Positions 13,977-53,662 of a DNA stretch of 64,000 bases are shown piece by piece; the first letter of the stretch is position 1, and each line of letters opens with the position of its first letter. The translations under genes and the position numbers were made by a program. The stretch covers positions 7,490-71,489 of the forward strand of contig CAZAGD010000065.1 of NCBI GenBank assembly GCA_964484485.1. The letters are read 5' to 3'. Under the pieces are notes generated by a model. The model was not told the origin of the DNA. It ran no database searches and saw nothing but the letters and a program-made list of their open reading frames with translations. The DNA is from an uncultured Syntrophaceae bacterium. Lineage in GTDB: Bacteria; Desulfobacterota; SM23-61.

Positions 13977-14093
13977 CTTTTACCTCCTTGGCTGAATTTT
14001 AATTTATTCTATATACTCTGCGCAAAAAGTGCAAACAAAAAATTTATTTCTTCTTAATGTCTTACTACACCTTTCTCTGCTGGCGAGAAGAAA

Positions 14094-14143
14094 AGGCTTG
14101 TCGCTTGCTAAGTATAATTCGTAAGGTAAGGGTCTAACTCCCC
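14094..14143. repeat. short repeat D (about 50 bp), copy 1
   Basis: GGCTTGTCGCTTGCTAAGTATAATTCGTAAGGTAAGGGTCTAACTCCCCC is about 80% identical to 15373-15425. Both copies lie immediately 5' of another MITE. Confidence 0.4.
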
Positions 14144-14161
14144 CAAATCCCTCTTAAGTTA

Positions 14162-14395
14162 TTAATCGGAGCAAATAAATATTTACAGTTATCACTCTTA
14201 TCTTACTCCGTGGTCTGGCTTTATCGAGTTTTCCCAATGAAATTTTGTCGTAATTACCCATAAGAAATAAAACGACATGCGGCAAGGGACAAGCACTTGC
14301 CCTACATTTGAGGTTTTTTTAATTTCTCGTAGGGCAAGCCCTTGAGGCTTGCCGAACCACGCATGAAGATGTCGTTTATTTTATGCTCCCATCAA
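14162..14395 (+). mobile_element. MITE family B, copy B1 (234 bp; IS630/Tc1-like TIRs with TA flanks)
   Basis: TIRs TTAATCGGAGCA (14162-14173) and TGCTCCCATCAA (14384-14395), flanked by TA on both sides. Three internal GC-rich hairpins (GGCAAGGG/CCCTTGCC, CTTGCCCTAC/GTAGGGCAAG, GGCAAGCC/GGCTTGCC). About 87% identical over the same 234-bp length to 48794-49027. Confidence 0.6.
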
Positions 14396-14449
14396 TAAAA
14401 GGCGGAAAGGGGGGTTATGAGATGAGGAAAGTTTATGCCGTGTAGGCAG

Positions 14450-15372: not shown

Positions 15373-15425
15373 CCTAAGGTCTTGTCGCTCGCTGGGTATA
15401 ATTCGTAATGTGAAGGTCTAACTCT
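15373..15425. repeat. short repeat D, copy 2
   Basis: GGTCTTGTCGCTCGCTGGGTATAATTCGTAATGTGAAGGTCTAACTCTCCC matches 14094-14143. Confidence 0.4.
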
Positions 15426-15429
15426 CCCT

Positions 15430-15482
15430 CTCTCCCTCCCGCCTGAATTAATCTGGAATTTAAAAACTGATCGACGGTCAGG
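15430..15482 (+). repeat. MITE family C, partial copy C3 (right half only)
   Basis: CTCTCCCTCCCGCCTGAATTAATCTGGAATTTAAAAACTGATCGACGGTCAGG matches the right arm and right TIR of C2 (53600-53662). The left arm is absent. Confidence 0.5.
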
Positions 15483-15571: not shown

Positions 15572-16639
15572 ATGTGTCTAAATATTTCCCGAAGAAATTT
15601 TATTAAGGCGGCCATGGTCAGCAGTATGGCCTTGGGAATAGATGGGGGAATCTTTGAATTGGCTTTTAGTCAAAATACCCACATCCGCTTCAGCACCTGG
15701 CATACCCCTTTGAGTCGAGAGGTTAAGACTGTCTGGGAACCTATGCTCAAAGCCATAAAAGAAAAAAGTAAAGGACAAATTAGCTCTACTATATATGCCG
15801 GCGGAGCATTGGGAAAAGGGCCCGAACATTTCGATATCGTGGCTAAGGGCCTTTCTGATATGGGTTATTTTACGGCTACGTGGACTCCTGGCCGCTTTCC
15901 CCTTTCAGATGTCCTCTCTTTAGCTGTTTGGGTTGATGGAAAGGATATTGGCACGGATATCGGCAATGCCATGTTTGAGAGAATTTTGCATAGAGAATTC
16001 ACCAATGTAAAGATGATCGAATTGAACGGCTGCATCCAGTCCTTCCTTTGGACTAAGAGACCAGTCCGGTCTTTGGCAGATGTCAAAGGGCTGAAAATCA
16101 GGACACCCGGCGGTCATCAAACAAATTATATCAAATCTTTGGGAGCCGAACCTATTTTTATGCCTTTGGGCGATGTTTATTTGGCCATCGAGACCGGAAC
16201 GATTGATGGCGTGGTAACCTGTCCTCCTTTGGTCATTGCTTTCAAATTATTCGAAGTGGTTAAATACGGGGTTATTGCTACCTTCGGTTGCGTCACCGAA
16301 GGAGTGGTGATGAACCTGCAAAGTTGGCAAAGAATTCCCAAAGATCATCAACAAATTATTGAATCAATAGCCCGTAATCCCTTTAGAACTACAGGGGGAT
16401 TGACGCAAAAAGCATATCAGGAGATGATGAAGGAAATTAGCCAAAAAGGAGTATCCCTTTACCAACTTCCTCCAGAAGAGGCGGAACGCTGGTATGAAAG
16501 GTTTAGAGAAGAGACCAGGAAATGGGTAGCTGATTTAGAGAGAAAAGGACTCCCGGCTAAAGAAACAGTGCGGATGTTCAATCAAGAATGCGCTAAGCGC
16601 GGTATTAGTGTAGTTGCTTTCCCCAAAGAATGGGCCTGA
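15572..16639 (+). CDS. dctP: TRAP transporter substrate-binding protein, DctP family (Tat signal)
   Basis: Twin-arginine signal SRRNFIKAAMVSSMALG. The DctP fold, including KIRTPGG, is conserved. Confidence 0.85.
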   Translation: MCLNISRRNFIKAAMVSSMALGIDGGIFELAFSQNTHIRFSTWHTPLSREVKTVWEPMLKAIKEKSKGQISSTIYAGGALGKGPEHFDIVAKGLSDMGYFTATWTPGRFPLSDVLSLAVWVDGKDIGTDIGNAMFERILHREFTNVKMIELNGCIQSFLWTKRPVRSLADVKGLKIRTPGGHQTNYIKSLGAEPIFMPLGDVYLAIETGTIDGVVTCPPLVIAFKLFEVVKYGVIATFGCVTEGVVMNLQSWQRIPKDHQQIIESIARNPFRTTGGLTQKAYQEMMKEISQKGVSLYQLPPEEAERWYERFREETRKWVADLERKGLPAKETVRMFNQECAKRGISVVAFPKEWA

Positions 16640-30135: not shown

Positions 30136-30159
30136 CTATCCTCCTTAGAATCTACCCTT

Positions 30160-30324
30160 TATCCCCCACTCTCCCCCGTGGTCGGGTGTCAGTAGGACAG
30201 TGTCGGAACGACAATCGTACCGATTCGTCCCGACTCTTATCTACTCTCCCCATGCTTGGGGAGAGGTTTTAGGTTGAGGGGTTAAAAATGGCCAAGGTCA
30301 TTTATTCAATGCTTCTATTAATCA
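30160..30324 (+). mobile_element. MITE family A, copy A1 (5'-truncated; fills the gspF-gspG intergenic space)
   Basis: About 90% identical to 37640-37797 and 44820-44991, including GTCGGAACG...CGTTCCGAC and TCTCCCCA...TGGGGAGA hairpins and the right TIR-like end ATGCTTCTATTAATCA. The left TIR is missing. The element ends at the gspF stop codon. Confidence 0.5.
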
Positions 30325-37319: not shown

Positions 37320-37562
37320 TCAGCGTCCTTTAAGCAAGTCTTTTAAACGCGATTCGTTCTGCTTTAACCCAAAACCCAAGGTATTATAGAAGCTTTCCAA
37401 CCATTCGGTAATACTCATTTTAACCTTATTCTCCACTTTTAAGCCATAGCGCCCGCAAAACTCACAAACTTGCCAGAACAAATCGCTTTTTAAAATCTCC
37501 TCTATATTATTTTTCTGTTTTTTCCCACATTTTGAGCAGATAACTTTTTTAATTACTTTCAT
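37320..37562 (-). CDS. small zinc-ribbon protein (hypothetical)
   Basis: 80 aa with CSKC...CEFC (2x CxxC). Confidence 0.35.
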   Translation of the reverse strand: MKVIKKVICSKCGKKQKNNIEEILKSDLFWQVCEFCGRYGLKVENKVKMSITEWLESFYNTLGFGLKQNESRLKDLLKGR

Positions 37563-37601
37563 TTCTTTTTCACTTTCCCAAAATTTACGACGCGCAAATT
37601 A

Positions 37602-37795
37602 TTAGGCGGAGCAATTAAATATTTACGCTTAATCCCTTCAACCACCCCCCCTGTGTTCGGGTGTCAGTATGACAGTGTCGGAACGACAATCGTACCGATT
37701 CGTTCCGACTCTTATCGACTCTCCCCAGGCGTGGGGAGAAGGCCAGAATAAAGGGTTAAGAAGGGCACAGGTCATTTATTTAATGCTCCCATTAA
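37602..37795 (+). mobile_element. MITE family A, copy A2 (194 bp; TIR TTAGGCGGAGCA / TGCTCCCATTAA, TA flanks)
   Basis: Complete copy. The 12-bp TIRs are flanked by TA at 37600-37601 and 37796-37797. The internal hairpins are the same as in A1 and A3. Confidence 0.6.
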
Positions 37796-37964
37796 TAATG
37801 CCCAAATTTTACTGGGAATTATTAATTAACGTCAGCAAATTTTGTTAAATTTTAATGTACTTATCGTTTAAATAAGTAGATAAGTTTAGCATAGCAGAAA
37901 ATGGTCATCCTGAAAATAAATATTTTCCCTTATTCTGTCCCAATTTTTCCCCAGATTCTAAAAA

Positions 37965-40338: not shown

Positions 40339-41101
40339 AACTCTTCCCCAAATAAGCTTCGATGACCCTTCTATCTTTTCCTACATCTGCTGGCTTTCCT
40401 TCCGCGATTTTTTGACCATAACTCAAAACCATCACTCTTTGCGGCAGCTCCATGGCTACTTTCATTTTATGTTCAATCAATACAATAGTAATCCCCTGGT
40501 CATTGATCCTGGCAATTAAGGAGATGAGGTCGTTTATCTCCTTAAGGTTGACACCTCCGGTGGGCTCATCTAAGAGAAGTAAGCACGGTTCCGTCGCCAG
40601 GGCCATGCCAATAGATAACCTCTTTTGCGCTTCTTGGGTCAAGGTGCTGGCTAATACATTTCTTTTTTCTGTCAGACCTATAAAATTTAATATATCTGCA
40701 GCTTTTTCTTGAGCAATTTTTTCTTCCTCTTGGAAACTACGGCTGTTTATTAAAGTGCCAAGGAGTGGAGCTTTGGCCCGTAAACGACAACCAATTTTTA
40801 TATTTTCCAAAACAGTTTCTCTACCGAATATAGAAGTAATTTGAAAAGTGCGCGCAATCCCTTTTTGAGCTATGGTAAAAGGTTTTAGATGAGATATATC
40901 TTCTCCTTTAAAGGTGATTTTGCCTTTAGTGGGCGCCAAAAAACCCGTAATCACATTGAAGAGCGTGGTTTTCCCTGAACCATTAGGCCCAATGATGCTA
41001 AAAATTTCCCCTTCCTTTACGTAAAAGCTCAAGTCAGCAATAGCGCGCAGACCACCGAAATCTTTACAAAGGCCTTCTACTTCCAGAATCTTCCGGTTCA
41101 T
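40328..41101 (-). CDS. livG: branched-chain amino acid-type ABC transporter ATPase LivG
   Basis: Walker A GPNGSGKTT. LivG-type C-terminal extension. Confidence 0.85.
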   Translation of the reverse strand: MNRKILEVEGLCKDFGGLRAIADLSFYVKEGEIFSIIGPNGSGKTTLFNVITGFLAPTKGKITFKGEDISHLKPFTIAQKGIARTFQITSIFGRETVLENIKIGCRLRAKAPLLGTLINSRSFQEEEKIAQEKAADILNFIGLTEKRNVLASTLTQEAQKRLSIGMALATEPCLLLLDEPTGGVNLKEINDLISLIARINDQGITIVLIEHKMKVAMELPQRVMVLSYGQKIAEGKPADVGKDRRVIEAYLGKSYVA

Positions 41102-42087
41102 TTTCTTGCTTTTAAGAATAAATTAGCGGCCAGGAGATGGACTCCCCCCATGATACCTCCCCGCAAGAAAATAACAATAATAATTAACAAAAACCCATAG
41201 GCGACTAAGCGGGGAAAAGCCATCCCATGTAAAAGTTCGCTAATAACGGTTAAGCTAAAAGCCCCGATTATGGGCCCGGCCATTGTGCCTAAGCCGCCGA
41301 TTAGACAGTAGATGAGGATCTCAAAGGTTACATGGTAATCAGAAATCTCTGGGCTAAGAAAACCTATATAAGAAGCATATAAGCCACCGGATAGGCCAGC
41401 GAAAAACACGCTAATTAAAAATGATTGTAATTTGGTAAATAAGGTGTTAATCCCTAGAGATTCAGCCAACTCTTCATTTCCGCGAACAGCCAGAAAAGAC
41501 CTCCCAATCATAGAATTTACTATTCTTCTAATAATCAGCAAAGTCAAAATTAGGAAGGAAAAAACCAGATAATAATTAGCAGTCATCGTGGTAAAATTAA
41601 TTTCTTTTCCAAATGGGAACGGAATAGGTGTTGGCCTGGGAATGCCCAGCAATCCCCTAACTCCTTCGGTAAGACCCTCCCAGTTTTCGATGATTACGGT
41701 AACGATGACATTGAAACACATCGTTCCTATAGCGTAGTAGGAACCTTTGGTCCGAAAAGCAAGCAGACCAATGAAAAATCCAATGGCCACGGTTATAGAG
41801 CAGGCCATAATTAGGGCCAGCCAGAAATTAATTCCTAACTTTAACATTAATAAACCTGTGCTATAGGCACCAATTCCAAAAAAAGCCCCATGGGCTAAAT
41901 TAACTTGCCCCGTATAACCCATAATAAGATTCATAGAGGCGGCGGCTATTCCCCAAATACCGCACATGATCAAGATATGCATATAAAAACGGCTGCTGAC
42001 GAAAAAAGGTATGGTGGCCACCACTATAATGAAGATAATATAGGCCAAATTTCTGGAAATGAAATTACTGAATTTTGTTTGCCTCAT
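41098..42087 (-). CDS. livM: Liv-type ABC transporter permease LivM
   Basis: 329-aa polytopic permease adjacent to livH. Confidence 0.8.
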   Translation of the reverse strand: MRQTKFSNFISRNLAYIIFIIVVATIPFFVSSRFYMHILIMCGIWGIAAASMNLIMGYTGQVNLAHGAFFGIGAYSTGLLMLKLGINFWLALIMACSITVAIGFFIGLLAFRTKGSYYAIGTMCFNVIVTVIIENWEGLTEGVRGLLGIPRPTPIPFPFGKEINFTTMTANYYLVFSFLILTLLIIRRIVNSMIGRSFLAVRGNEELAESLGINTLFTKLQSFLISVFFAGLSGGLYASYIGFLSPEISDYHVTFEILIYCLIGGLGTMAGPIIGAFSLTVISELLHGMAFPRLVAYGFLLIIIVIFLRGGIMGGVHLLAANLFLKARK

Positions 42088-42983
42088 TTAGCCCCAAAGA
42101 GTCCCGTTGGTCTTATGGCCAAAACAGTAACCAAGACACCAAAGGAGAAAACTTCGTTATAAGCTGTACTGATATAACCCCCGCTTAGACTTTCCACTAA
42201 CCCTAAAATAAACCCACCTATGATGGCTCCGGGAATACTCCCCATTCCGCCTAAGATAATAATTACAAAAGCTTTAAGGATGACTGGCCCGCCCATTCCT
42301 GGGTAGACTAAATGGATAGGGGAAATTAAAGCGGCAGCTATGGAGGCCAAGCCGGTGCCCAAAGCAAAAACTATCATGCGCACGCGATTTACACTAATTC
42401 CCATGAGCAAGGCGCCTTCGCGATCTTGAGCCGTAGCTTCTATAGTGGCGCCGATGGTAGTTTTTTTAATAAAGAGCTGCAGAAGAATAATTAGCAGGAT
42501 AGTAACGGTGATAATGATTATTCTTTGTAAAGTAATTGTGAGGCCCATTACTTGGAAGGCCTCATAATGAACCGGGGGGAATCTTTTAAAGTCTGGGCCA
42601 AAAATATGTAAAGCCCCATCTACAAATATAAAGATTAGTCCAATGGCGGCTATAAAAGAATTTAAAGGAGATTCTTTGATCAAAGGCCGGTAAACTAAAC
42701 GTTCTACTAACACTCCGATGGCTGCTAAGGCGATCATGGCCAGCATCATGGCCAGCCAGTAATTGAATCCCATTTGGGTGGCCAACAGAAATGTCAAATA
42801 AGCTCCGGCCATATATAAAGCCCCATGAGCAAAATTAGGAATATGTAATATTCCATATTCCAAGGTAAGTCCCAAGGCCACCAATGAATAGATGCTGCCC
42901 AGCATTATGCCGTTTAAAACTTGCTGGATAAACAGCGCCATTTCTGCATCATCTTTTCCATTAAAATTTTTAGTGTAGAGCAA
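42084..42983 (-). CDS. livH: Liv-type ABC transporter permease LivH
   Basis: 299-aa polytopic permease. Confidence 0.8.
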   Translation of the reverse strand: MLYTKNFNGKDDAEMALFIQQVLNGIMLGSIYSLVALGLTLEYGILHIPNFAHGALYMAGAYLTFLLATQMGFNYWLAMMLAMIALAAIGVLVERLVYRPLIKESPLNSFIAAIGLIFIFVDGALHIFGPDFKRFPPVHYEAFQVMGLTITLQRIIIITVTILLIILLQLFIKKTTIGATIEATAQDREGALLMGISVNRVRMIVFALGTGLASIAAALISPIHLVYPGMGGPVILKAFVIIILGGMGSIPGAIIGGFILGLVESLSGGYISTAYNEVFSFGVLVTVLAIRPTGLFGAK

Positions 42984-43075
42984 GGGTTTATCCCTTGCCC
43001 TGGATGAGATAACTTTGAAGTTTATTCTCTTTATTTTTCAAGCAGAGATAAGAAAATTATAAAGATAAATAGATC

Positions 43076-44287
43076 TCACTTCGGCGTCCAAGTAGCGCCA
43101 TACTTTTGGTACCAGGGGCGCGGATCAATATCAACTGGTTTGCCAAATTTTCCCTCATCCACTTCCATGGCGAAGTAACCGGATAAAAATTGCCCTTCTT
43201 TAGTCATGGTATGAATGCCTCGGATAGCATGTTTGCCCACGGGTAGAACTTGCGGCACTGCCTCCATTATTTTATACACATCTGTTACAGTTCCCGCTTT
43301 CTTCATGGCCTCGGCAAAAATATACATAACTTCATAGTTGAAGGCTGATTCGGAAGTGGGAATAGTGTTAAATCTCTCTCTGTGTCTTTTGGAGTAATCT
43401 TGCATAAGCGGCAAAGGCATCATACCCACAGGACATACTCCCGTACTGGGGGAGATTAGTTTGAGTGGGGTTACTTTCTCCATCTCGTCCAGTTTACACT
43501 GGGATCCGAGAACAAAACCGCCCTTAAAGCCGAGTTCTCGCGCTTGCGATATAATCATGGCCGAAGGTTCTGAAGGGCCATAAAGGAAGATACAATCTGG
43601 CTTAGCGGCCAAAACTTTCGTTAGGTAAGGATAAAAGTCGGTCACTTTGGCATAATCAGCCGGGGCGTTAGCCACTATCTGCCCACCTTTGTCTTTCCAG
43701 AGAACCTCAAAAATTTGTTCGGCCAGTTTCCCTGATTCATGAGTACCACAAAGTAAGGCACCTTTGCGCCACCCCTTTTGCCAGCCCAGCTCGATTACTC
43801 CAGAATTATAAAAACCCATGGACATAGGTGCTTTGACCAATAACCTATTCCCCTGCTGCAATACAGCCGGATTATCAGTATAACCATGAATAATGAATTT
43901 TTCTTGTTCATTAAACTTCAGCATCCCTAATATGCCGCCGGCATGGGGACAAAAGATAAAAGGAGGTTTATGCAACTCGATTAAACGCCGGGCGTTGGTT
44001 ACTGTATCAGCCGGTTTATAGCGATCATCTAAGGCTATTACTTTAAAAGTATATTTTTTACCCCCAACGGTAATCCCACCGGCAGCATTTATCTCTTCCA
44101 CGGCCATTTCTAAACCCTCTAAGTTATTTCGACCGTATTTAGCTGCTCCTCCGCTCAAAGGTCCGGTATAGCCCACGTTAATTACATCGGCCAAAACCAT
44201 AGAAAGATTGCCCATAAACGACGTTAAGATAAGAATTATTAAAAAGTTTATAATTTTTTTAAAATTTTTCCCCCCACCCATAACCAT
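43076..44287 (-). CDS. Liv-type ABC transporter periplasmic substrate-binding protein (LivK/LivJ family)
   Basis: 403 aa with a signal peptide and a type I periplasmic binding fold. Confidence 0.75.
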   Translation of the reverse strand: MVMGGGKNFKKIINFLIILILTSFMGNLSMVLADVINVGYTGPLSGGAAKYGRNNLEGLEMAVEEINAAGGITVGGKKYTFKVIALDDRYKPADTVTNARRLIELHKPPFIFCPHAGGILGMLKFNEQEKFIIHGYTDNPAVLQQGNRLLVKAPMSMGFYNSGVIELGWQKGWRKGALLCGTHESGKLAEQIFEVLWKDKGGQIVANAPADYAKVTDFYPYLTKVLAAKPDCIFLYGPSEPSAMIISQARELGFKGGFVLGSQCKLDEMEKVTPLKLISPSTGVCPVGMMPLPLMQDYSKRHRERFNTIPTSESAFNYEVMYIFAEAMKKAGTVTDVYKIMEAVPQVLPVGKHAIRGIHTMTKEGQFLSGYFAMEVDEGKFGKPVDIDPRPWYQKYGATWTPK

Positions 44288-44589
44288 CCCCCTTTCTTAT
44301 TTAATTTTTTTATTTAAAAGGTAAAGTTATATAACTAATTTATTAGCGGACCCCCCTGACCTCTTTATCTCTACTTAGCCAGAAGATAAAACCCAACATT
44401 CAATTATATTCTCGGAGCAAATTACCATTTTTGCCAAACAATTTCAAGCAAAACTTAATTGGCAAAGTAATATCTCACTGAAGGTTAGAAACTTTAACTT
44501 TTTTGGCTACAAATGAGGCATGTAGCCATTATTACATGGGTTTTAAATAAGGCATTTGGTAGCGGAGTATGGCGTAGGCCAAGGGTTCA

Positions 44590-44781
44590 TCCCTTGCCGA
44601 AAAGAGGCAAGCCCTAAGGGCTTGCCCTACGAGAAATTAAAAAAACCTCAAATGTAGGGCAAGGGCTTGTCCCTTGCCGCATTTGGTTTTATTTCTTATA
44701 TGTAATTACGACACAATTTCATTGGGGAAAGTAGATAAAGCCAGACCACGGAGTAAGATAAGAGTGATAGCTGTAAATATT
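44590..44781 (-). mobile_element. MITE family B, copy B3 (reverse orientation, truncated at both ends)
   Basis: The reverse complement matches the B1/B2 core (AAATGCGGCAAGGGACAAGCCCTTGCCCTACATTTGAGGTTTTTTTAATTTCTCGTAGGGCAAGCCCTTAGGGCTTGCC) and the upstream CCGTGGTCTGGCTTTAT...ATGAAATTGTGTCGTAATTAC segment. Its left end abuts the A3 TIR and its right TIR is missing. Confidence 0.5.
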
Positions 44782-44783
44782 TA

Positions 44784-44991
44784 TTACTCGGAGCAATTAA
44801 TTATTTACACTTATGCCCCTCACCCTCCCCCCGTGGTCGGGTGTCAGTATGACAGTGTCGGAACGACAATCGTACCGATTCGTTCCGACTCTTATCGACT
44901 CTCCCCATGCTTGGGGAGAGGGTTAGGGTGAGGGGTTGAAAACGGCGGATGTCATATATTTATTGATCTCATTAATAATTGCTCCCAGTAA
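44784..44991 (+). mobile_element. MITE family A, copy A3 (208 bp; TIR TTACTCGGAGCA / TGCTCCCAGTAA, TA flanks)
   Basis: Near-perfect 12-bp TIRs with TA at 44782-44783 and 44992-44993. Same internal hairpins as A1 and A2. Confidence 0.6.
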
Positions 44992-45107
44992 TACCTCAGT
45001 CTCCTAAGAGCAAAAAAAGAGGTAGAAATAAGGTAATATCGGCCAGCCGCGAAAGCGTTATCAAAGGGGAAATTAAAACTACAATTCTTGGGAAATAATT
45101 TCTTTCT

Positions 45108-45971
45108 TTATTGACCTAAATAAATATTAATAAAGGCCTCCACATCTTGCCGGATAAATTCTGCTAAGGATAGAGTTGTATTTTGTAAAAGGATATTCAT
45201 ATCTAAAAAAATTTCGGCAAAGGTCATTCTTTGAATCTCGTGGCTTTCCCAGAATATTGCTTCATAGTTGCTCTTCCCTAAAATACCTTGTTGGTAATTT
45301 TTATAAGCCATTTGGGTCTCATGAGCCAGGACAGCCTGGATTTTGTCTTTAATATAAGGCGTAATATCAAAAATAATTCGTTTGTGTCCTCCCCAGAAGT
45401 TTCCCCAAATGCTGTAACCAAAAAGATGAGTAGCTTTTATGGAACAGGCGCGTAAAGCCTCCAAGCTAATCTGCGTGCAAAGCAAATGGGTTTTATGCCT
45501 TTCATATGGCGCGGGGATAAATACTTCTTCTGGCTGGAGAAGGTCTAAGATTTTGGCCAGAGTTCCTTTCACTTGAACAAATTTTGCGGGCAATTCTTTA
45601 CTGTTAACCCTAAGAAAAAAACCGCCTTTAGCTCTAAGGAGGCGCAGAGCTGATAGTGCTTCTATCTCTCTTCTGCTGACCATCTGGGCATTTGGAAAAT
45701 TCTTATCTCTGCGCGGGCTACCAGCTCCGTCGGTAATATAAACTACAAATACCTGTTTCTTTTTTTCAGCGGCGCTGGCCATGTAACCGCCGACCCCTAA
45801 TACGTCATCATCCGGATGCGGAGCAACGATCAATATATTTTCTTTTATTTGCCTATAATCTTCCAAATTTCGCCCTGTTTCTACAGCGATAAAAAAATCT
45901 TGGAGCATGGACACATCTTTCATAAAAAATTCTCCAGCAGCTGGATGTAATAATAATCTAAGGAAACACAA
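45108..45971 (-). CDS. PIG-L/LmbE-family N-acetylglucosaminyl deacetylase
   Basis: Zinc-binding motif APHPDDDVLGVGG. Downstream of murQ-anmK. The real start is probably the MKDVSM or MLQDF Met. Confidence 0.75.
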   Translation of the reverse strand: MCFLRLLLHPAAGEFFMKDVSMLQDFFIAVETGRNLEDYRQIKENILIVAPHPDDDVLGVGGYMASAAEKKKQVFVVYITDGAGSPRRDKNFPNAQMVSRREIEALSALRLLRAKGGFFLRVNSKELPAKFVQVKGTLAKILDLLQPEEVFIPAPYERHKTHLLCTQISLEALRACSIKATHLFGYSIWGNFWGGHKRIIFDITPYIKDKIQAVLAHETQMAYKNYQQGILGKSNYEAIFWESHEIQRMTFAEIFLDMNILLQNTTLSLAEFIRQDVEAFINIYLGQ

Positions 45972-47133
45972 TTTTCCCTAAAATAGCCGATCTTTCAGCC
46001 CCGGTGGCTCCCGGGACATTTCCGGAAATTCCTTGTAAAGTAGCATCTGCTAAGAGAGCGAAGGCCACGGCCTCTTTGGCATCCCCATCAATACCCAAAG
46101 CATTTAGAGTTTTTATGGGAATAGGTTGGAATAGTTCTTTCATGAAGCGAAGCAGGGTTTTATTATGCAGGCCTCCGCCAGAAATGAAGACTTCATCTAT
46201 TCTAAATTTGGGGAAAATATAATTTTTAAAAGCATCAAAAATCGAGATGGCTGTTAAATAGGTGGCGGTAGCGATAAGATCGGGAAAAGAGGCTTTCCGG
46301 GCGGCGCTGATGAATTCTTTTAAAAATGGTTTCCCAAATATTTCGCGCCCAGTAGATTTAGGAGGTTCTAAGCGGAAATAGGGATGTTGACGCATTCGGC
46401 TTAAAAGCTCTTCTTGCACCCTCCCTTGGGCAGCTATTTTCCCTAGGCTATCAAATTTTTTCTTCCCCTTTGTATAAATAGAGACCAAATCATCAATAAC
46501 CATATTTCCGGGACCTGTATCAAAGGCAAGTACTTCCTCTAATTTTTCCGGGACTACAGTCACATTGGCAATGCCACCTATATTTATGAAGGCGCGCACC
46601 TTCCCTTTTTCCCGGAAAAGAACAAAGTCAGCAAAAGGAACTAAGGGTGCTCCTATGCCACCGGCAGCTATATCACCTGGGCGGAAATCACCTATGGTTA
46701 AAATTCCGGTGCGGGCTGCGATCACGGCTCCCTCTCCTATTTGCAAAGTAGAATTAATTTTTCCTGGAACCTGACTAATATGATAAACAGTATGGCCGTG
46801 GGAACCCAGGAAATCTACCTGATTTGTCTGGTATCCGTGGTGCTGGAGAAATTTCAATACACAGGAAGCAAAAACTTCCCCCAAGATAAAATTCATTTCA
46901 CAGATTTCTTCCGCTTTAGCTGAATTAAGCTCTAAGATTCTTTTTCTAAGTGAGCGCGGGTAAGGGTAGGAATTAAAGGCTAAAAGTTTTACGTCCGTGG
47001 CCAAGTGGCGGCCTGATATTTCTACTAAGGCCAGGTCCACGCCATCCCCGGAAGTGCCCGACATGAGGCCTAGGGCTATTCTCTTTTTCTTTTCCTGGAT
47101 GCGCCATATTCTTGACCAAGCAGCTCTTTCCAT
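45958..47133 (-). CDS. anmK: anhydro-N-acetylmuramic acid kinase
   Basis: N-terminal GLMSGTSGDGVDLALVEI matches the AnmK signature. 391 aa. Confidence 0.85.
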   Translation of the reverse strand: MERAAWSRIWRIQEKKKRIALGLMSGTSGDGVDLALVEISGRHLATDVKLLAFNSYPYPRSLRKRILELNSAKAEEICEMNFILGEVFASCVLKFLQHHGYQTNQVDFLGSHGHTVYHISQVPGKINSTLQIGEGAVIAARTGILTIGDFRPGDIAAGGIGAPLVPFADFVLFREKGKVRAFINIGGIANVTVVPEKLEEVLAFDTGPGNMVIDDLVSIYTKGKKKFDSLGKIAAQGRVQEELLSRMRQHPYFRLEPPKSTGREIFGKPFLKEFISAARKASFPDLIATATYLTAISIFDAFKNYIFPKFRIDEVFISGGGLHNKTLLRFMKELFQPIPIKTLNALGIDGDAKEAVAFALLADATLQGISGNVPGATGAERSAILGKIVFP

Positions 47134-48101
47134 AATTCCTTCTTTTTCCTGATCAAATTCCGCGCTTCTTGAGCACTACATTTTTTCTTACCCATGATCA
47201 AGGCTATTTTAGGTTCGTAATCAGCTTTTTGCAACAAATCTTGGGCTTGTTTTGCTGGGCAACCGAGAATTTGGGTTACAATTTTTTCGGCTCTTCTCTT
47301 CAATTTTTGGGAAACAGGCCTAACTTCTATCATTAAATTACGGTAAACTTTTCCCAGAAGAATCATGGCCCCCGTGGAGATCATATTCAATACCAGCTTG
47401 GTTGCTGTTCCAGCTTTTAGGCGAGTTGAACCAGCAATTATTTCGGGGCCAACTATCGGATTAATTAATATCCCCTTTTTAAAAGGAAGCGCGGGGTGAG
47501 GCTGACAGGTAATAAAAATGCAACGCGCCCCCCGCTTATATGCTTCTCCTAAAGCGGCGCGCACAAAAGGGGTTGTGCCCGAAGCACTTATGCCGCAAAC
47601 TACATCTTTTCTTCCAATTTTCGCTTTTCTTACCGCGTGCACTCCCGCTCCTTGATCATCTTCGGCACCTTCTATGGCTTTCCAAAGGGCTTTTCGCCCT
47701 CCCGCAATAATGGCCTGTACTTTTCTTGATGACACATTAAATGTGGGTCCACACTCCACCGCATCCAACATGCCTAAGCGGCCACTTGTTCCAGCACCCA
47801 CATAAAATAATCTTCCTCCTTGTTTAAGAGCATCATGAACTATCTCTATAGCCCGGGCCACCTTACCAAGTTGAGTATGTACGGCTAAAGCAACTTTTTG
47901 GTCCTCACGATTCATAACCTCGGCTATTTCTAAAGCAGATGCCTGGTCAATATTGATCGATGCCAGATTGCCTTTTTCTGTTAATGCCGAAAATTCTCTT
48001 TTCTTATTTTTGGCCTTTGGTTCCATCTTCCCCATGGCCATATTCTTGGCCTTTTGCCCCCGGCCCTTCGCTTTTTGCTCCACTCCCCGCGCGCTGCTCA
48101 T
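47076..48101 (-). CDS. murQ: N-acetylmuramic acid 6-phosphate etherase
   Basis: SIS domain with YVGAGTSGRLG and an EGAED... catalytic Glu region. The true start is probably an internal Met, giving about 300 aa. Confidence 0.85.
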   Translation of the reverse strand: MSSARGVEQKAKGRGQKAKNMAMGKMEPKAKNKKREFSALTEKGNLASINIDQASALEIAEVMNREDQKVALAVHTQLGKVARAIEIVHDALKQGGRLFYVGAGTSGRLGMLDAVECGPTFNVSSRKVQAIIAGGRKALWKAIEGAEDDQGAGVHAVRKAKIGRKDVVCGISASGTTPFVRAALGEAYKRGARCIFITCQPHPALPFKKGILINPIVGPEIIAGSTRLKAGTATKLVLNMISTGAMILLGKVYRNLMIEVRPVSQKLKRRAEKIVTQILGCPAKQAQDLLQKADYEPKIALIMGKKKCSAQEARNLIRKKKELWKELLGQEYGASRKRKRE

Positions 48102-48670
48102 TCCCCTACCAACTCTTTACCCAACGCATAAGCTTCCGTCAAAGCAGTTGGATGCTTGATAATTTCTCCTTTTTCATCAATTTTCTGGTAAAGAAGTGAT
48201 TTATAAAAAATCATATCTAGGGCATCAAAAAAATATTTCATGGTTAAGAGTGGTCCATCGAAGACCTTATTCCCTCGCGATCCTCCCACAGCCAGAAAGA
48301 CTCCTCGGCGGTGCGGTTTATTTGGTGATATGGGTTGTTTTAATAGATATTTCTTCGCCCAAAGGGCCTGGCAACGGTCAATAAATGCCTTAGTATGGGC
48401 ACTTACCGCATAGAAGAAAATGGGGGAAGCAAGGGCGACTGCATCGGCTTCGGCCAGCTTATCATAAAGAGGCTGCATATCATCGGGAATGGGACATTTT
48501 CCTTCTTTTTTACACGCATAAATTTCTAAACATGGACTAATCTTTAATTGGCGTAAAAAAATTTCTTCTACTTCCGCTCCAGCCTCCCGGCAGCCCCGGA
48601 GAAGTTCTCTCAATAAAAGATCCGTATTTCCATCTCGGCGCGGACTCCCGTAAATACCCAAGACTTTCAT
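48098..48670 (-). CDS. NADPH-dependent FMN reductase / iron-sulfur flavoprotein-like
   Basis: MKVLGIYGSPRRDGNTDLLL flavodoxin-like N-terminus. 190 aa. Confidence 0.75.
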   Translation of the reverse strand: MKVLGIYGSPRRDGNTDLLLRELLRGCREAGAEVEEIFLRQLKISPCLEIYACKKEGKCPIPDDMQPLYDKLAEADAVALASPIFFYAVSAHTKAFIDRCQALWAKKYLLKQPISPNKPHRRGVFLAVGGSRGNKVFDGPLLTMKYFFDALDMIFYKSLLYQKIDEKGEIIKHPTALTEAYALGKELVGE

Positions 48671-48793
48671 TTTTGGCCCTCCTTTTTTAAAACCTTAGCA
48701 AACTACTTCTCTCCTGCCAAGAGGGAAAAATTTTGACCGCCAAGCGATTTTAATTTTTTAGTCCCTCGGCATAAAGAGGCTCTGGGGCAATTA

Positions 48794-49027
48794 TTAATCG
48801 GAGCAATTAAATATTTACAGTTATCACGCTTATCTTCCTCCATGCTCTGGCTTTGTTTGCTTGCCCCAATGAAATTGTATCTTAATTGCCCATAAGAAAT
48901 GAAACCAAATGCGGCAAGGGACAAGCCCTTCCCCTACATTTGAGGTTTTTTTAATTTCTTGTAGGGCAAGCCCTTGGGGCTTGCCGAACCCCGCATTAAG
49001 ATGTCGTTTATTTTATGCTCCCATTAA
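48794..49027 (+). mobile_element. MITE family B, copy B2 (234 bp; TIR TTAATCGGAGCA / TGCTCCCATTAA, TA flanks)
   Basis: Same length and architecture as B1, with TA at 48792-48793 and 49028-49029. Explains the spurious ORFs 48703-48924 and 49008-49334. Confidence 0.6.
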
Positions 49028-49208
49028 TAACTCTCCTCTGCCCAGCTGGGCACTTGGTCTTAATCAATAAATAGGCTAACTTTCTCCTGGGGTGGAGACT
49101 GTGTCGCCATGAGGGAGGAGGGCCGGAGGCAGGCCAAAAAGGAAACCAGTTGTTTTTTTGTGAAGAAAGAGCTATCCTATGCAAAATTTTTAAGAAAGGA
49201 GGAGTCCC

Positions 49209-53093: not shown

Positions 53094-53332
53094 GACCTAT
53101 ATTTTATCTTTTGGACCTGCCCTCTTGTCAAAGTAAAATTAAATGAGTTCCTTCATCTCCCGTTGGAAGTGATTTTGAACTAAGAGCATAAAGCTACCTT
53201 ATGATCCCGAGAGTGGACCTCCTTGCCTCTTGGGCGACTAAGATTTAGATAAATAGTTAAGTTGGTCCAGGTTAAAAGAAATCTCTGAAAAATCTTTTTA
53301 AAAAATTTGTAGGTCAACTCTTTATAAACCGC

Positions 53333-53425
53333 TTGAGGTAAGGGACAAGCCCTTACCCTACAAATTTATTGGCCAGATGTTTTTTGTAGGGTAATCCCTT
53401 GTGGCCTACCGAATGAATATTAATG
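53333..53425. repeat. degenerate fragment of MITE family B (B4)
   Basis: GGTAAGGGACAAGCCCTTACCCTACAAA...TTTGTAGGGTAATCCCTTGTGGCCTACCGAATGAATATTAATGGGGAACA retains the hairpin architecture and a TIR-like end, at about 65% identity. Confidence 0.35.
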
Positions 53426-53545: not shown

Positions 53546-53662
53546 AACCGTCTAACAGTTTTAATATTTCTCGCCAGCAGGAAACAGGCGGGAGGGGGAG
53601 AGGCGAGCCTCTCTTCCTCCCGCCTGAATTAAGCTGAAATTTAAAAAATGATCGACGGTCAG
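53546..53662 (+). mobile_element. MITE family C, copy C2 (117 bp) with 11-bp target-site duplication
   Basis: TIRs aACCGTCtaaCAg ... tgaTCGACGGTcag. Internal hairpin CAGGCGGGAGGGGGAGAGGCGAG/CCTCTCTTCCTCCCGCCTG. Perfect direct repeat TTAAAATTACT at 53535-53545 and 53663-53673. Confidence 0.6.

Follow-up and report, generated by a model that had tools for sequence, protein, structure and literature searches.

A 194-nt intergenic element, A2, lies within the 64,000-nt stretch of contig CAZAGD010000065.1 analysed here (the window), and the strong predicted folding of this element raises the question of whether it is a mobile DNA element, a structured RNA or a terminator. The earlier note had assigned it to a MITE family, family A, which shares its TIRs with a second family, family B, but was said to carry an unrelated, highly structured core. 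The hairpins of that core had been taken as a sign of selection on structure, possibly in a transcribed small RNA or terminator module.

Family-A and family-B copies in the window

The window has a G+C content of 43%, and its genes include a type II secretion operon, a FadD-like ligase and Ogt. Identical proteins were found on metagenome contigs, while the relatives that are at least 90% identical are MAGs named 'Thermodesulfobacteriota bacterium'. A repeat search of the window recovered three family-A and two family-B copies, with a 55-nt block common to the left ends of A2, A3, B1 and B2; a 28-nt left-TIR pattern matched four times, against 0.00 expected.

Full-length family-A elements are 192-197 nt long, are crossed by short ORFs alone, and end in an asymmetric TIR pair, TTAnnCGGAGCAATTAAATATTTAC ... 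GTCATTTATTTAATGCTCCCATTAA (ends also written TTAnnCGGAGCA...TGCTCCCnnTAA). The limits previously given for A2 (37602-37795, + strand) were confirmed, with TA on both sides (37600-37601 and 37796-37797). Its left, L-type TIR, TTAGGCGGAGCAATTAAATATTTAC, spans 37602-37626 on the + strand and its right, R-type TIR (reverse complement TTAATGGGAGCATTAAATAAATGAC) spans 37771-37795 on the - strand. The second full-length copy, A3 (44784-44975, + strand, 192 nt), carries its insert at 44833-44899 and is flanked by TA at 44782-44783 and 44976-44977. Its right terminus, ...GATCTCATTAA, lies at 44975 rather than at 44991 as first described; the last 16 nt of the longer interval are part of the split TIR of a family-B host copy, and TGCTCCCAGTAA (44980-44991), which had been read as the right TIR of A3, belongs to the left TIR of that reversed copy. 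The third copy, A1 (about 30150-30321, + strand), is decayed, with the left TIR lost and the right TIR degenerate. The insert of A1 (30178-30244) has three substitutions, and the element occupies the whole spacer between the gspF stop and the gspG RBS. The three copies share 84-87% identity with one another, lower than the roughly 90% claimed before, and 86-94% with the full-length reference copy L015. The +0 translation of the element, the single frame searched, had no protein homologue, and this search yielded no candidates for a captured gene fragment or a called ORF as the origin of the element.

Both family-B MITEs, B1 (14159-14398, + strand) and B2 (48791-49030, + strand), have the TIR pair of family A, bearing out the claim that the two families share TIRs and TA flanks. 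A BLAST search of B against the window also returned a reversed B copy at 44606-44792, adjoining A3. This copy, B3, spans 44606-44781 on the - strand (B positions 195 to about 19) and hosts A3 within its TIR; the distal half of its left TIR, ATTGCTCCCAGTAA, resumes beyond A3 at 44978-44991 (- strand) and is followed by TA at 44992-44993.

The window contains other repeats. A 55-nt block, CCTCTCTYCCTCCCGCCTGAATTAAnCTGnAATTTAAAAAnTGATCGACGGTCAG, is present at 15376-15481 and 53608-53662 with 93% identity, about 90 nt upstream of unrelated ORFs at 15572 and 53749, and a separate 53-nt block is common to 14092-14144 and 15376-15428. Neither matched Rfam; these blocks could be a shared leader or promoter, or a further repeat family. 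Four tandem units of about 260 nt at 1979-2798, 63-85% identical across 40 nt, lie within a 595-aa ORF (1737-3524), which suggests a repeat-domain protein.

Family A is mobile and duplicates TA

Two independent comparisons of filled and empty sites revealed a TA target-site duplication. One is the nested insertion, where the site reads ...AAATATT-TA-[A3]-TA-ATTGCTCC... and the intact B TIR is AAATATTTAATTGCTCC; written in reverse complement, the intact TIR is CTGTAAATATTTAATTGCTCC and the window has CTGTAAATATT-TA-[A3]-TA-ATTGCTCCCAGTAATA. Comparison of the intact with the split TIR indicates that A3 entered at a TA within the B3 TIR and that the TA was duplicated. The other is between species. 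L037, a contig of MAG Kamch4342-D-MF-053, is syntenic with window positions 40810-48738 at 88-90% identity. At an unoccupied TA target in the window (44423-44424), the sequence is GCAAAT-TA-CCATTTTTGCC, while L037 reads GCGAAAT-TA-[146 nt]-TA-ACATGTTTGCC, its orthologous interval (4279-4428) comprising a 146-nt A-type element and a second TA. The downstream flanks are CCATTTTTGCCAAAC in the window and ACATGTTTGCCAAAC in L037. Given the TA duplication at both sites, together with the presence and absence of family-A copies between species, family A is a real mobile MITE that inserts at TA with duplication of the TA. The elements are small and non-coding, have conserved TIRs and occur as multiple dispersed copies.

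Empty sites were also sought for other copies. A2 occupies its locus in each of the four strains or samples covered, none of the four strain contigs lacking it, and the intergenic DNA corresponding to B2 and B3 in the syntenic L037 is too diverged to serve. Both documented insertions (44423-44424 and 44782-44783) are at a TA directly after a TIR-like motif, GGAGCAA(A)T, so that the elements may target their own TIRs. A 44-nt element at L036:3153-3196 is made up of two left TIRs overlapping at TTAAATATTTAA and may be a minimal deletion derivative.

A palindromic backbone with a 67-nt insert

The A-type element of related MAGs forms a near-perfect palindrome of 128 nt, in the order TIR, C-rich arm, TCTCCCCA-n4-TGGGGAGA, G-rich arm, TIR. 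Such core-less 128-nt elements, with the apex hairpin at their centre, were found in four related MAGs; Kamch4342 has a second form, lengthened to 150 nt by a 22-nt insert in the right arm. When 67 nt (GTGGTCGGG...TCTTATCGAC) were removed in silico from the elements of the window species, 122-132 nt were left (127-132 in most), and this remainder could be aligned with the 128-nt elements found in the MAGs Kamch4342 and SIF170217. From this alignment it follows that one of the two strong hairpins formerly placed in the core, TCTCCCCA/TGGGGAGA, is the apex of the backbone, and that the true passenger is the 67-nt block. Both hairpins do exist, as does the GGTCGGGTGTCAGTATGACAGTGTCGG segment claimed for the shared core.

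The block is located between the left arm and the apex and is found in this species only. It folds as a closing stem with two hairpins, H0 and H1. In A2, this lineage-specific insert occupies 37653-37719 (+ strand, closing stem GTCG/CGAC), with H0, TGTCA-GTA-TGACA, at 37662-37674 and H1, GTCGGAACGA-n13-TCGTTCCGAC, at 37677-37709; the apex hairpin, TCTCCCCA-GGCG-TGGGGAGA, follows at 37720-37739 (+ strand). The 22-nt insert of Kamch4342 is related to the 5' half of H1 and its loop (20 of 23 aligned positions; 0 of 5000 shuffles) and is positioned elsewhere than the 67-nt block. The presence of this H1-like insert in a sister species indicates that the H1 sequence predates the 67-nt block as such.

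The G-rich right arm of A3 includes GGGGAGAGGGTTAGGGTGAGGGG (44913-44935), a TTAGGG-containing motif with four G-runs of the G-quadruplex type. Between 21 and 23 nt of the G-rich arm motif, after a CCCTCTCCCC hairpin, also occur in intergenic DNA of E. coli and Azospirillum (L053:1500-1537 and L054:1510-1548), with no annotation at these sites. The E. coli match is to one locus, present in 1684 of 5426 genomes, and similar matches of 40-46 nt were seen on Sinorhizobium and Rhizobium plasmids.

Further copies and internal architectures

Searching metagenome contigs with a core 20-mer gave 15 true stretches, all from JGI samples Ga0209102 and Ga0129301, and one chance match. After merging of contig-end halves, there are at least 16 distinct family-A loci in this species, all of them intergenic; the scan missed contig Ga0209102_1000505 despite exact matches to A1 and A2, so copy numbers are lower bounds. 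Full-length copies outside the window are at L007, L009, L015, L017/L013 and L018. Those at L006, L010, L012 and L019 are truncated on the right, and L005 is a decayed copy without TIRs. A core 22-mer had no match among 185,579 species genomes, and the core was not present in any other-species locus examined.

The ends of the element are more widespread. A degenerate TIR scan of the same 185,579 genomes gave 33 stretches, 19 of which are in related MAGs: Kamch4342 (9), RSS170216_bin_405 (5), TCS170221_bin_276 (3) and SIF170217_bin_35 (2). The others are singletons in which the sequence does not go on as a TIR. The same scan of viral contigs found no match, and a blastn search of plasmids with A3 matched the G-run arm/apex motif only, with TIR and core absent. 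The L-type and R-type ends (about 25-28 nt) and the TA are thus kept not only in the window but also in at least 13 further same-species loci and four related MAGs.

At least four internal architectures are carried by this TIR pair. In addition to A and B, L008 is a hybrid of A(1-126) and B(70-240), that is, a B-type element with the insert, and L015:1389-1640 is a B-like element with a third interior. At least two loci (L014+L004 and L016) have the core in the opposite orientation with respect to the L-type and R-type ends, giving the order R-end, core, L-end. Alignment of A with B covers A positions 1-60 (79-84% identity) and 166-197 (84-94%), and the shared stretches (about 60 nt on the left, 32 nt on the right) are longer than the TIRs alone. 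The edges of the insert, GTGGTCGGG / TCTTATCGAC, match the GTGGTCTGGC|TTTATCGAG of B, located exactly where A has its block, with 9-10 nt of B-like sequence at each block edge in A copies. The description of the A and B cores as unrelated does not hold given the common arms, the B-like insert edges and the hybrid; A and B are mosaics on a common scaffold. Such mosaics could have arisen through recombination or template switching among elements with common arms, and the flipped cores by recombination between inverted arms.

The interior of family B consists of two inverted units, each with GTAG and a GGCAAG..CTTGCC-type hairpin, and resembles by sequence a REP-doublet (REPIN/BIME) module. In the window, these modules are at 14291-14343, 44616-44668, 48923-48975 and 53347-53400, and the hairpin pattern has 12 matches, against 1.5 expected. 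Further B-type GTAG-hairpin modules are at L015:527-599, L015:11066-11144 and L005:5839-5931. The module also occurs solo, without TIRs (for example at 53326-53413), and some solo modules have apparent compensatory changes (GGCAAGGG..CCCTTGCC to GGTAAGGG..CCCTTACC).

Two inverted pairs of MITEs flank single genes, encoding an SBP_bac_5 solute-binding protein (L008:7113-9381) and a Wzi-like protein (L015:11482-14259); this composite-transposon-like layout may be a coincidence. Another dispersed repeat, of 88 nt, ending in heptamer repeats of the GCCTGCCTCTG type, is present at L006:2435-2522, L036:3576-3663 and L019:2346-2381. The versions from the window species and from the Kamch4342 MAG are 89% identical in non-syntenic surroundings, and synteny of L006 with L036 was rejected, this repeat being the only part they share.

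Tests for RNA or terminator function

The strong folding expected of A2 was borne out, with z = -6.3 against shuffled sequences on either strand, and z = -6.7 for the insert plus apex hairpin (87 nt) folded as DNA. The covariation expected alongside it was not seen: none of the 27 pairs had compensatory changes among 16 copies, no better than shuffles, in a set of nearly identical copies with low power. Stem variants are one-sided and mostly pair-breaking, and between the arms, only 2 of 34 pairs have a double change across species, too few to be informative. Rfam gave no match to a known riboswitch or structured ncRNA for the whole window at the gathering score; at E<=10, only chance-level matches were returned for 37550-37850, two touching the element ends and none in the core or apex hairpin. 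There is no T-run after H0, H1 or the apex hairpin on either strand, and no terminator-like site within A2. Relative to neighbouring genes, eight copies are antisense, four sense and four ambiguous, indicating no bias.

That copies are transcribed as discrete small RNAs, or are terminator modules selected for their structure, is in keeping with the strong predicted folding and with the intergenic position of all copies, several of them between co-directional genes. We consider it highly improbable, given the missing T-runs on both strands, the occurrence of both orientations, and the lack of covariation and of an Rfam family. In addition, a terminator at A1, which lies within the gspE-F-G operon, would keep transcription from reaching gspG. 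The proposal that the hairpins imply selection on structure thus finds no backing in these tests, and family A, as far as its sequence tells, gives no sign of being an RNA gene. The hairpins would instead be a by-product of a palindromic MITE architecture combined with a nested palindromic insert.

Low divergence of the insert

The insert is far less diverged than the rest of the element. Leaving out the 20 bait bases, differences from the consensus numbered 12 of 714 in the block, compared with 216 of 1355 in the arms and TIRs, a roughly 10-fold difference with dead copies included. The seven full-length copies gave the same picture (4/357 in the block and 96/891 in the arms and TIRs, p = 1e-10). 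A2 has 29 differences in 129 positions of its arms, which are of another lineage and come with the Kamch-type apex loop GGCG, while its block has 0 in 51. In the dead copies L005, L006 and A1, the arms are about 30% diverged and the block is 97-100% identical (98% in L005 and L006, whose TIRs are gone). The unusual conservation of the insert is therefore real. It is uniform over stems, loops and linkers, which looks like youth rather than constraint.

In strain L003 (Logan SRR5216256), about 83 nt including the whole block are missing at A1, around 30166-30248 in the gspF-gspG spacer, with a boundary that is ambiguous within a C-run. The missing segment is flanked by TCCCC microhomology, and the block is kept at the A2 locus. 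We rejected L003 as an empty site for the insert, since 83 rather than 67 nt are missing and the microhomology points to a deletion.

We favour recent origin of the block followed by copying between copies that share arms, whether by gene conversion, gap repair or template switching, because of its uniform invariance, its absence from a sister species that is 88-90% identical over a syntenic block, and its B-like edges. Two other processes, purifying selection and independent insertion, would each account for a block that is 97-100% identical in dead copies. Under the former, the 67-71-nt block would have been recruited for an element or host function, such as an accessory site for the transposase or a host factor (comparable to the IHF site of the long Correia form), a protein-binding palindrome or a small RNA. 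The roughly 10-fold lower divergence of the block, even where the TIRs have decayed (A1, L005, L006), would fit such a role, as would the perfect TGTCA-n3-TGACA palindrome, the 14-bp hairpin and the prediction that the block folds as a closed three-way unit. Yet invariance this uniform is unlike that of a constrained RNA or of a protein site of 15-30 bp; no compensatory changes were found and the few variants break pairs; and the insert has no IHF consensus, Rfam match or orientation bias. With the core deleted at the A1 locus in one strain, and the block absent from a sister species that keeps the MITE backbone, we regard purifying selection as unlikely.

Independent insertion would make the block a tiny non-autonomous mobile element, a recent invader of MITE copies of all ages that homes to CCCC|TCTCCCCA of the palindromic arm on either strand. 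Such homing would account for the identical junction in every copy, for the presence of the block in differing arm lineages (A2, with its Kamch-type loop GGCG), in dead copies and in the B-type L008, and, the target being palindromic, for the occurrence of both orientations with respect to the TIRs; a comparable case is the REP-doublet-like module of family B, which also exists solo. We nevertheless judge it quite unlikely. No solo block was found outside MITE arms and no block-less A-type copy in this species, the 9-10 nt of B-like sequence at the edges point to recombination from a B-type donor rather than to precise transposition, and the sole 'empty' allele, in L003, lacks 83 rather than 67 nt between TCCCC repeats and is a deletion. 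We know of no candidate enzyme for such homing. That the three-way hairpin block (67-71 nt) is either a recently spreading nested or homing unit, or a module kept from varying by some sequence-specific function, is on the whole rather improbable. Recent copying, as suggested by the distribution of differences, remains our preferred account, and the divergence pattern would then not reflect a host RNA or terminator function. Taken as a whole, family A is probably a non-autonomous cut-and-paste DNA transposon (MITE) with a shared transposase, mosaic copies and a recently copied block.

A putative shared transposase

We looked for an autonomous partner using a TIR catalogue of all loci, inverted 13-mers 0.6-3.5 kb apart, and all-against-all blastn for multicopy segments. 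In the roughly 0.5 Mb of DNA collected, no transposase had these TIRs; no such gene was seen in the window, in about 170 kb of same-species contigs or in about 150 kb of related MAGs, and viral contigs and plasmids likewise held no IS with matching TIRs. ORFs bracketed by MITE pairs were rejected as transposases, their Pfam assignments being SBP_bac_5, Wzi and an HTH-cupin protein. IS copies often go missing from MAG assemblies, and the lack of a partner IS is therefore weak evidence.

The families that share the TIR pair (A, B, the hybrid and the L015 variant) would depend, for transposition in trans, on a single TA-specific DDE transposase. IS630/Tc1-mariner is its most likely type, judging only from the TA duplication; duplications of 2 bp are also made by some IS5-group elements. 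The earlier idea of one transposase mobilising two unrelated passengers is thus plausible, judging from the TIRs, as regards a single enzyme serving several passengers, with at least four interiors now seen; the word 'unrelated' has to be dropped, and the ~0.5 Mb searched did not contain the enzyme.

Comparison with known elements

Family A is an ordinary kind of element, and its earlier classification as a MITE is right. The closest analogue is Correia/NEMIS of Neisseria, which has a short form of about 107 bp and a long form of about 155 bp, differing by a 50-bp internal segment (PMC2229807). Like family A, these are non-coding MITEs of about 100-200 nt with TIRs of about 24-26 bp, TA at the termini or target, an intergenic location, a long stem-loop and no known cognate transposase, and their short and long forms parallel the 128-nt and 194-197-nt forms described here. 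There is no sequence similarity between the two; the 50-bp Correia segment carries an IHF site, whereas the family-A insert lacks an IHF consensus; and, unlike in Correia, one species alone has the long form, with the short form seen only in related species.

RUP of Streptococcus pneumoniae is a TA-targeting MITE that tends to land in other mobile elements and has been proposed to be mobilised in trans by IS630-Spn1 (PMC2229807). Its landing habit resembles the two family-A insertions after a TIR-like motif. However, the TIRs of RUP match a known IS630-family element, while none was found for family A, and RUP, at 107 nt, has no modular interior.

Other comparisons concern the interiors. Stowaway MITEs of plants comprise many families with differing interiors that share TIRs and TA duplication with one Tc1/mariner transposase lineage; this 'one transposase, several passengers' arrangement is like that of A and B, although Stowaway elements are eukaryotic and their transposase partners were identified experimentally. 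BIME/REPIN elements of proteobacteria are mosaic intergenic elements of hairpin modules, and their REPs, each a short palindrome with a 5' GTAG tetranucleotide in solo or doublet copies, lack TIRs and TA duplication; their movement is ascribed to RAYT tyrosine transposases. The inverted GTAG-plus-hairpin pair of the family-B interior, also found solo, fits these features; the A insert, which starts with GTCG rather than GTAG and is never seen outside MITE arms, does not.

A little-studied, uncultured clade of Thermodesulfobacteriota thereby gains a well-documented MITE superfamily. The evidence for it includes duplication of TA, insertion of one copy inside another MITE and an empty site at an orthologous position, and its single TIR pair has at least four different interiors. 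Such MITEs break metagenome contigs, several copies being at contig ends, and can be mistaken for structured RNAs. They provide a natural example of modular bacterial MITEs, in which a palindromic backbone gains hairpin inserts, swaps halves and flips its centre. The near-invariant insert amid diverged arms is the only feature that might open something new: if true, either of the readings in which the block is itself active, as a homing unit or as a functional module, would account for its 97-100% identity amid arms that differ by 10-30% and dead TIRs.
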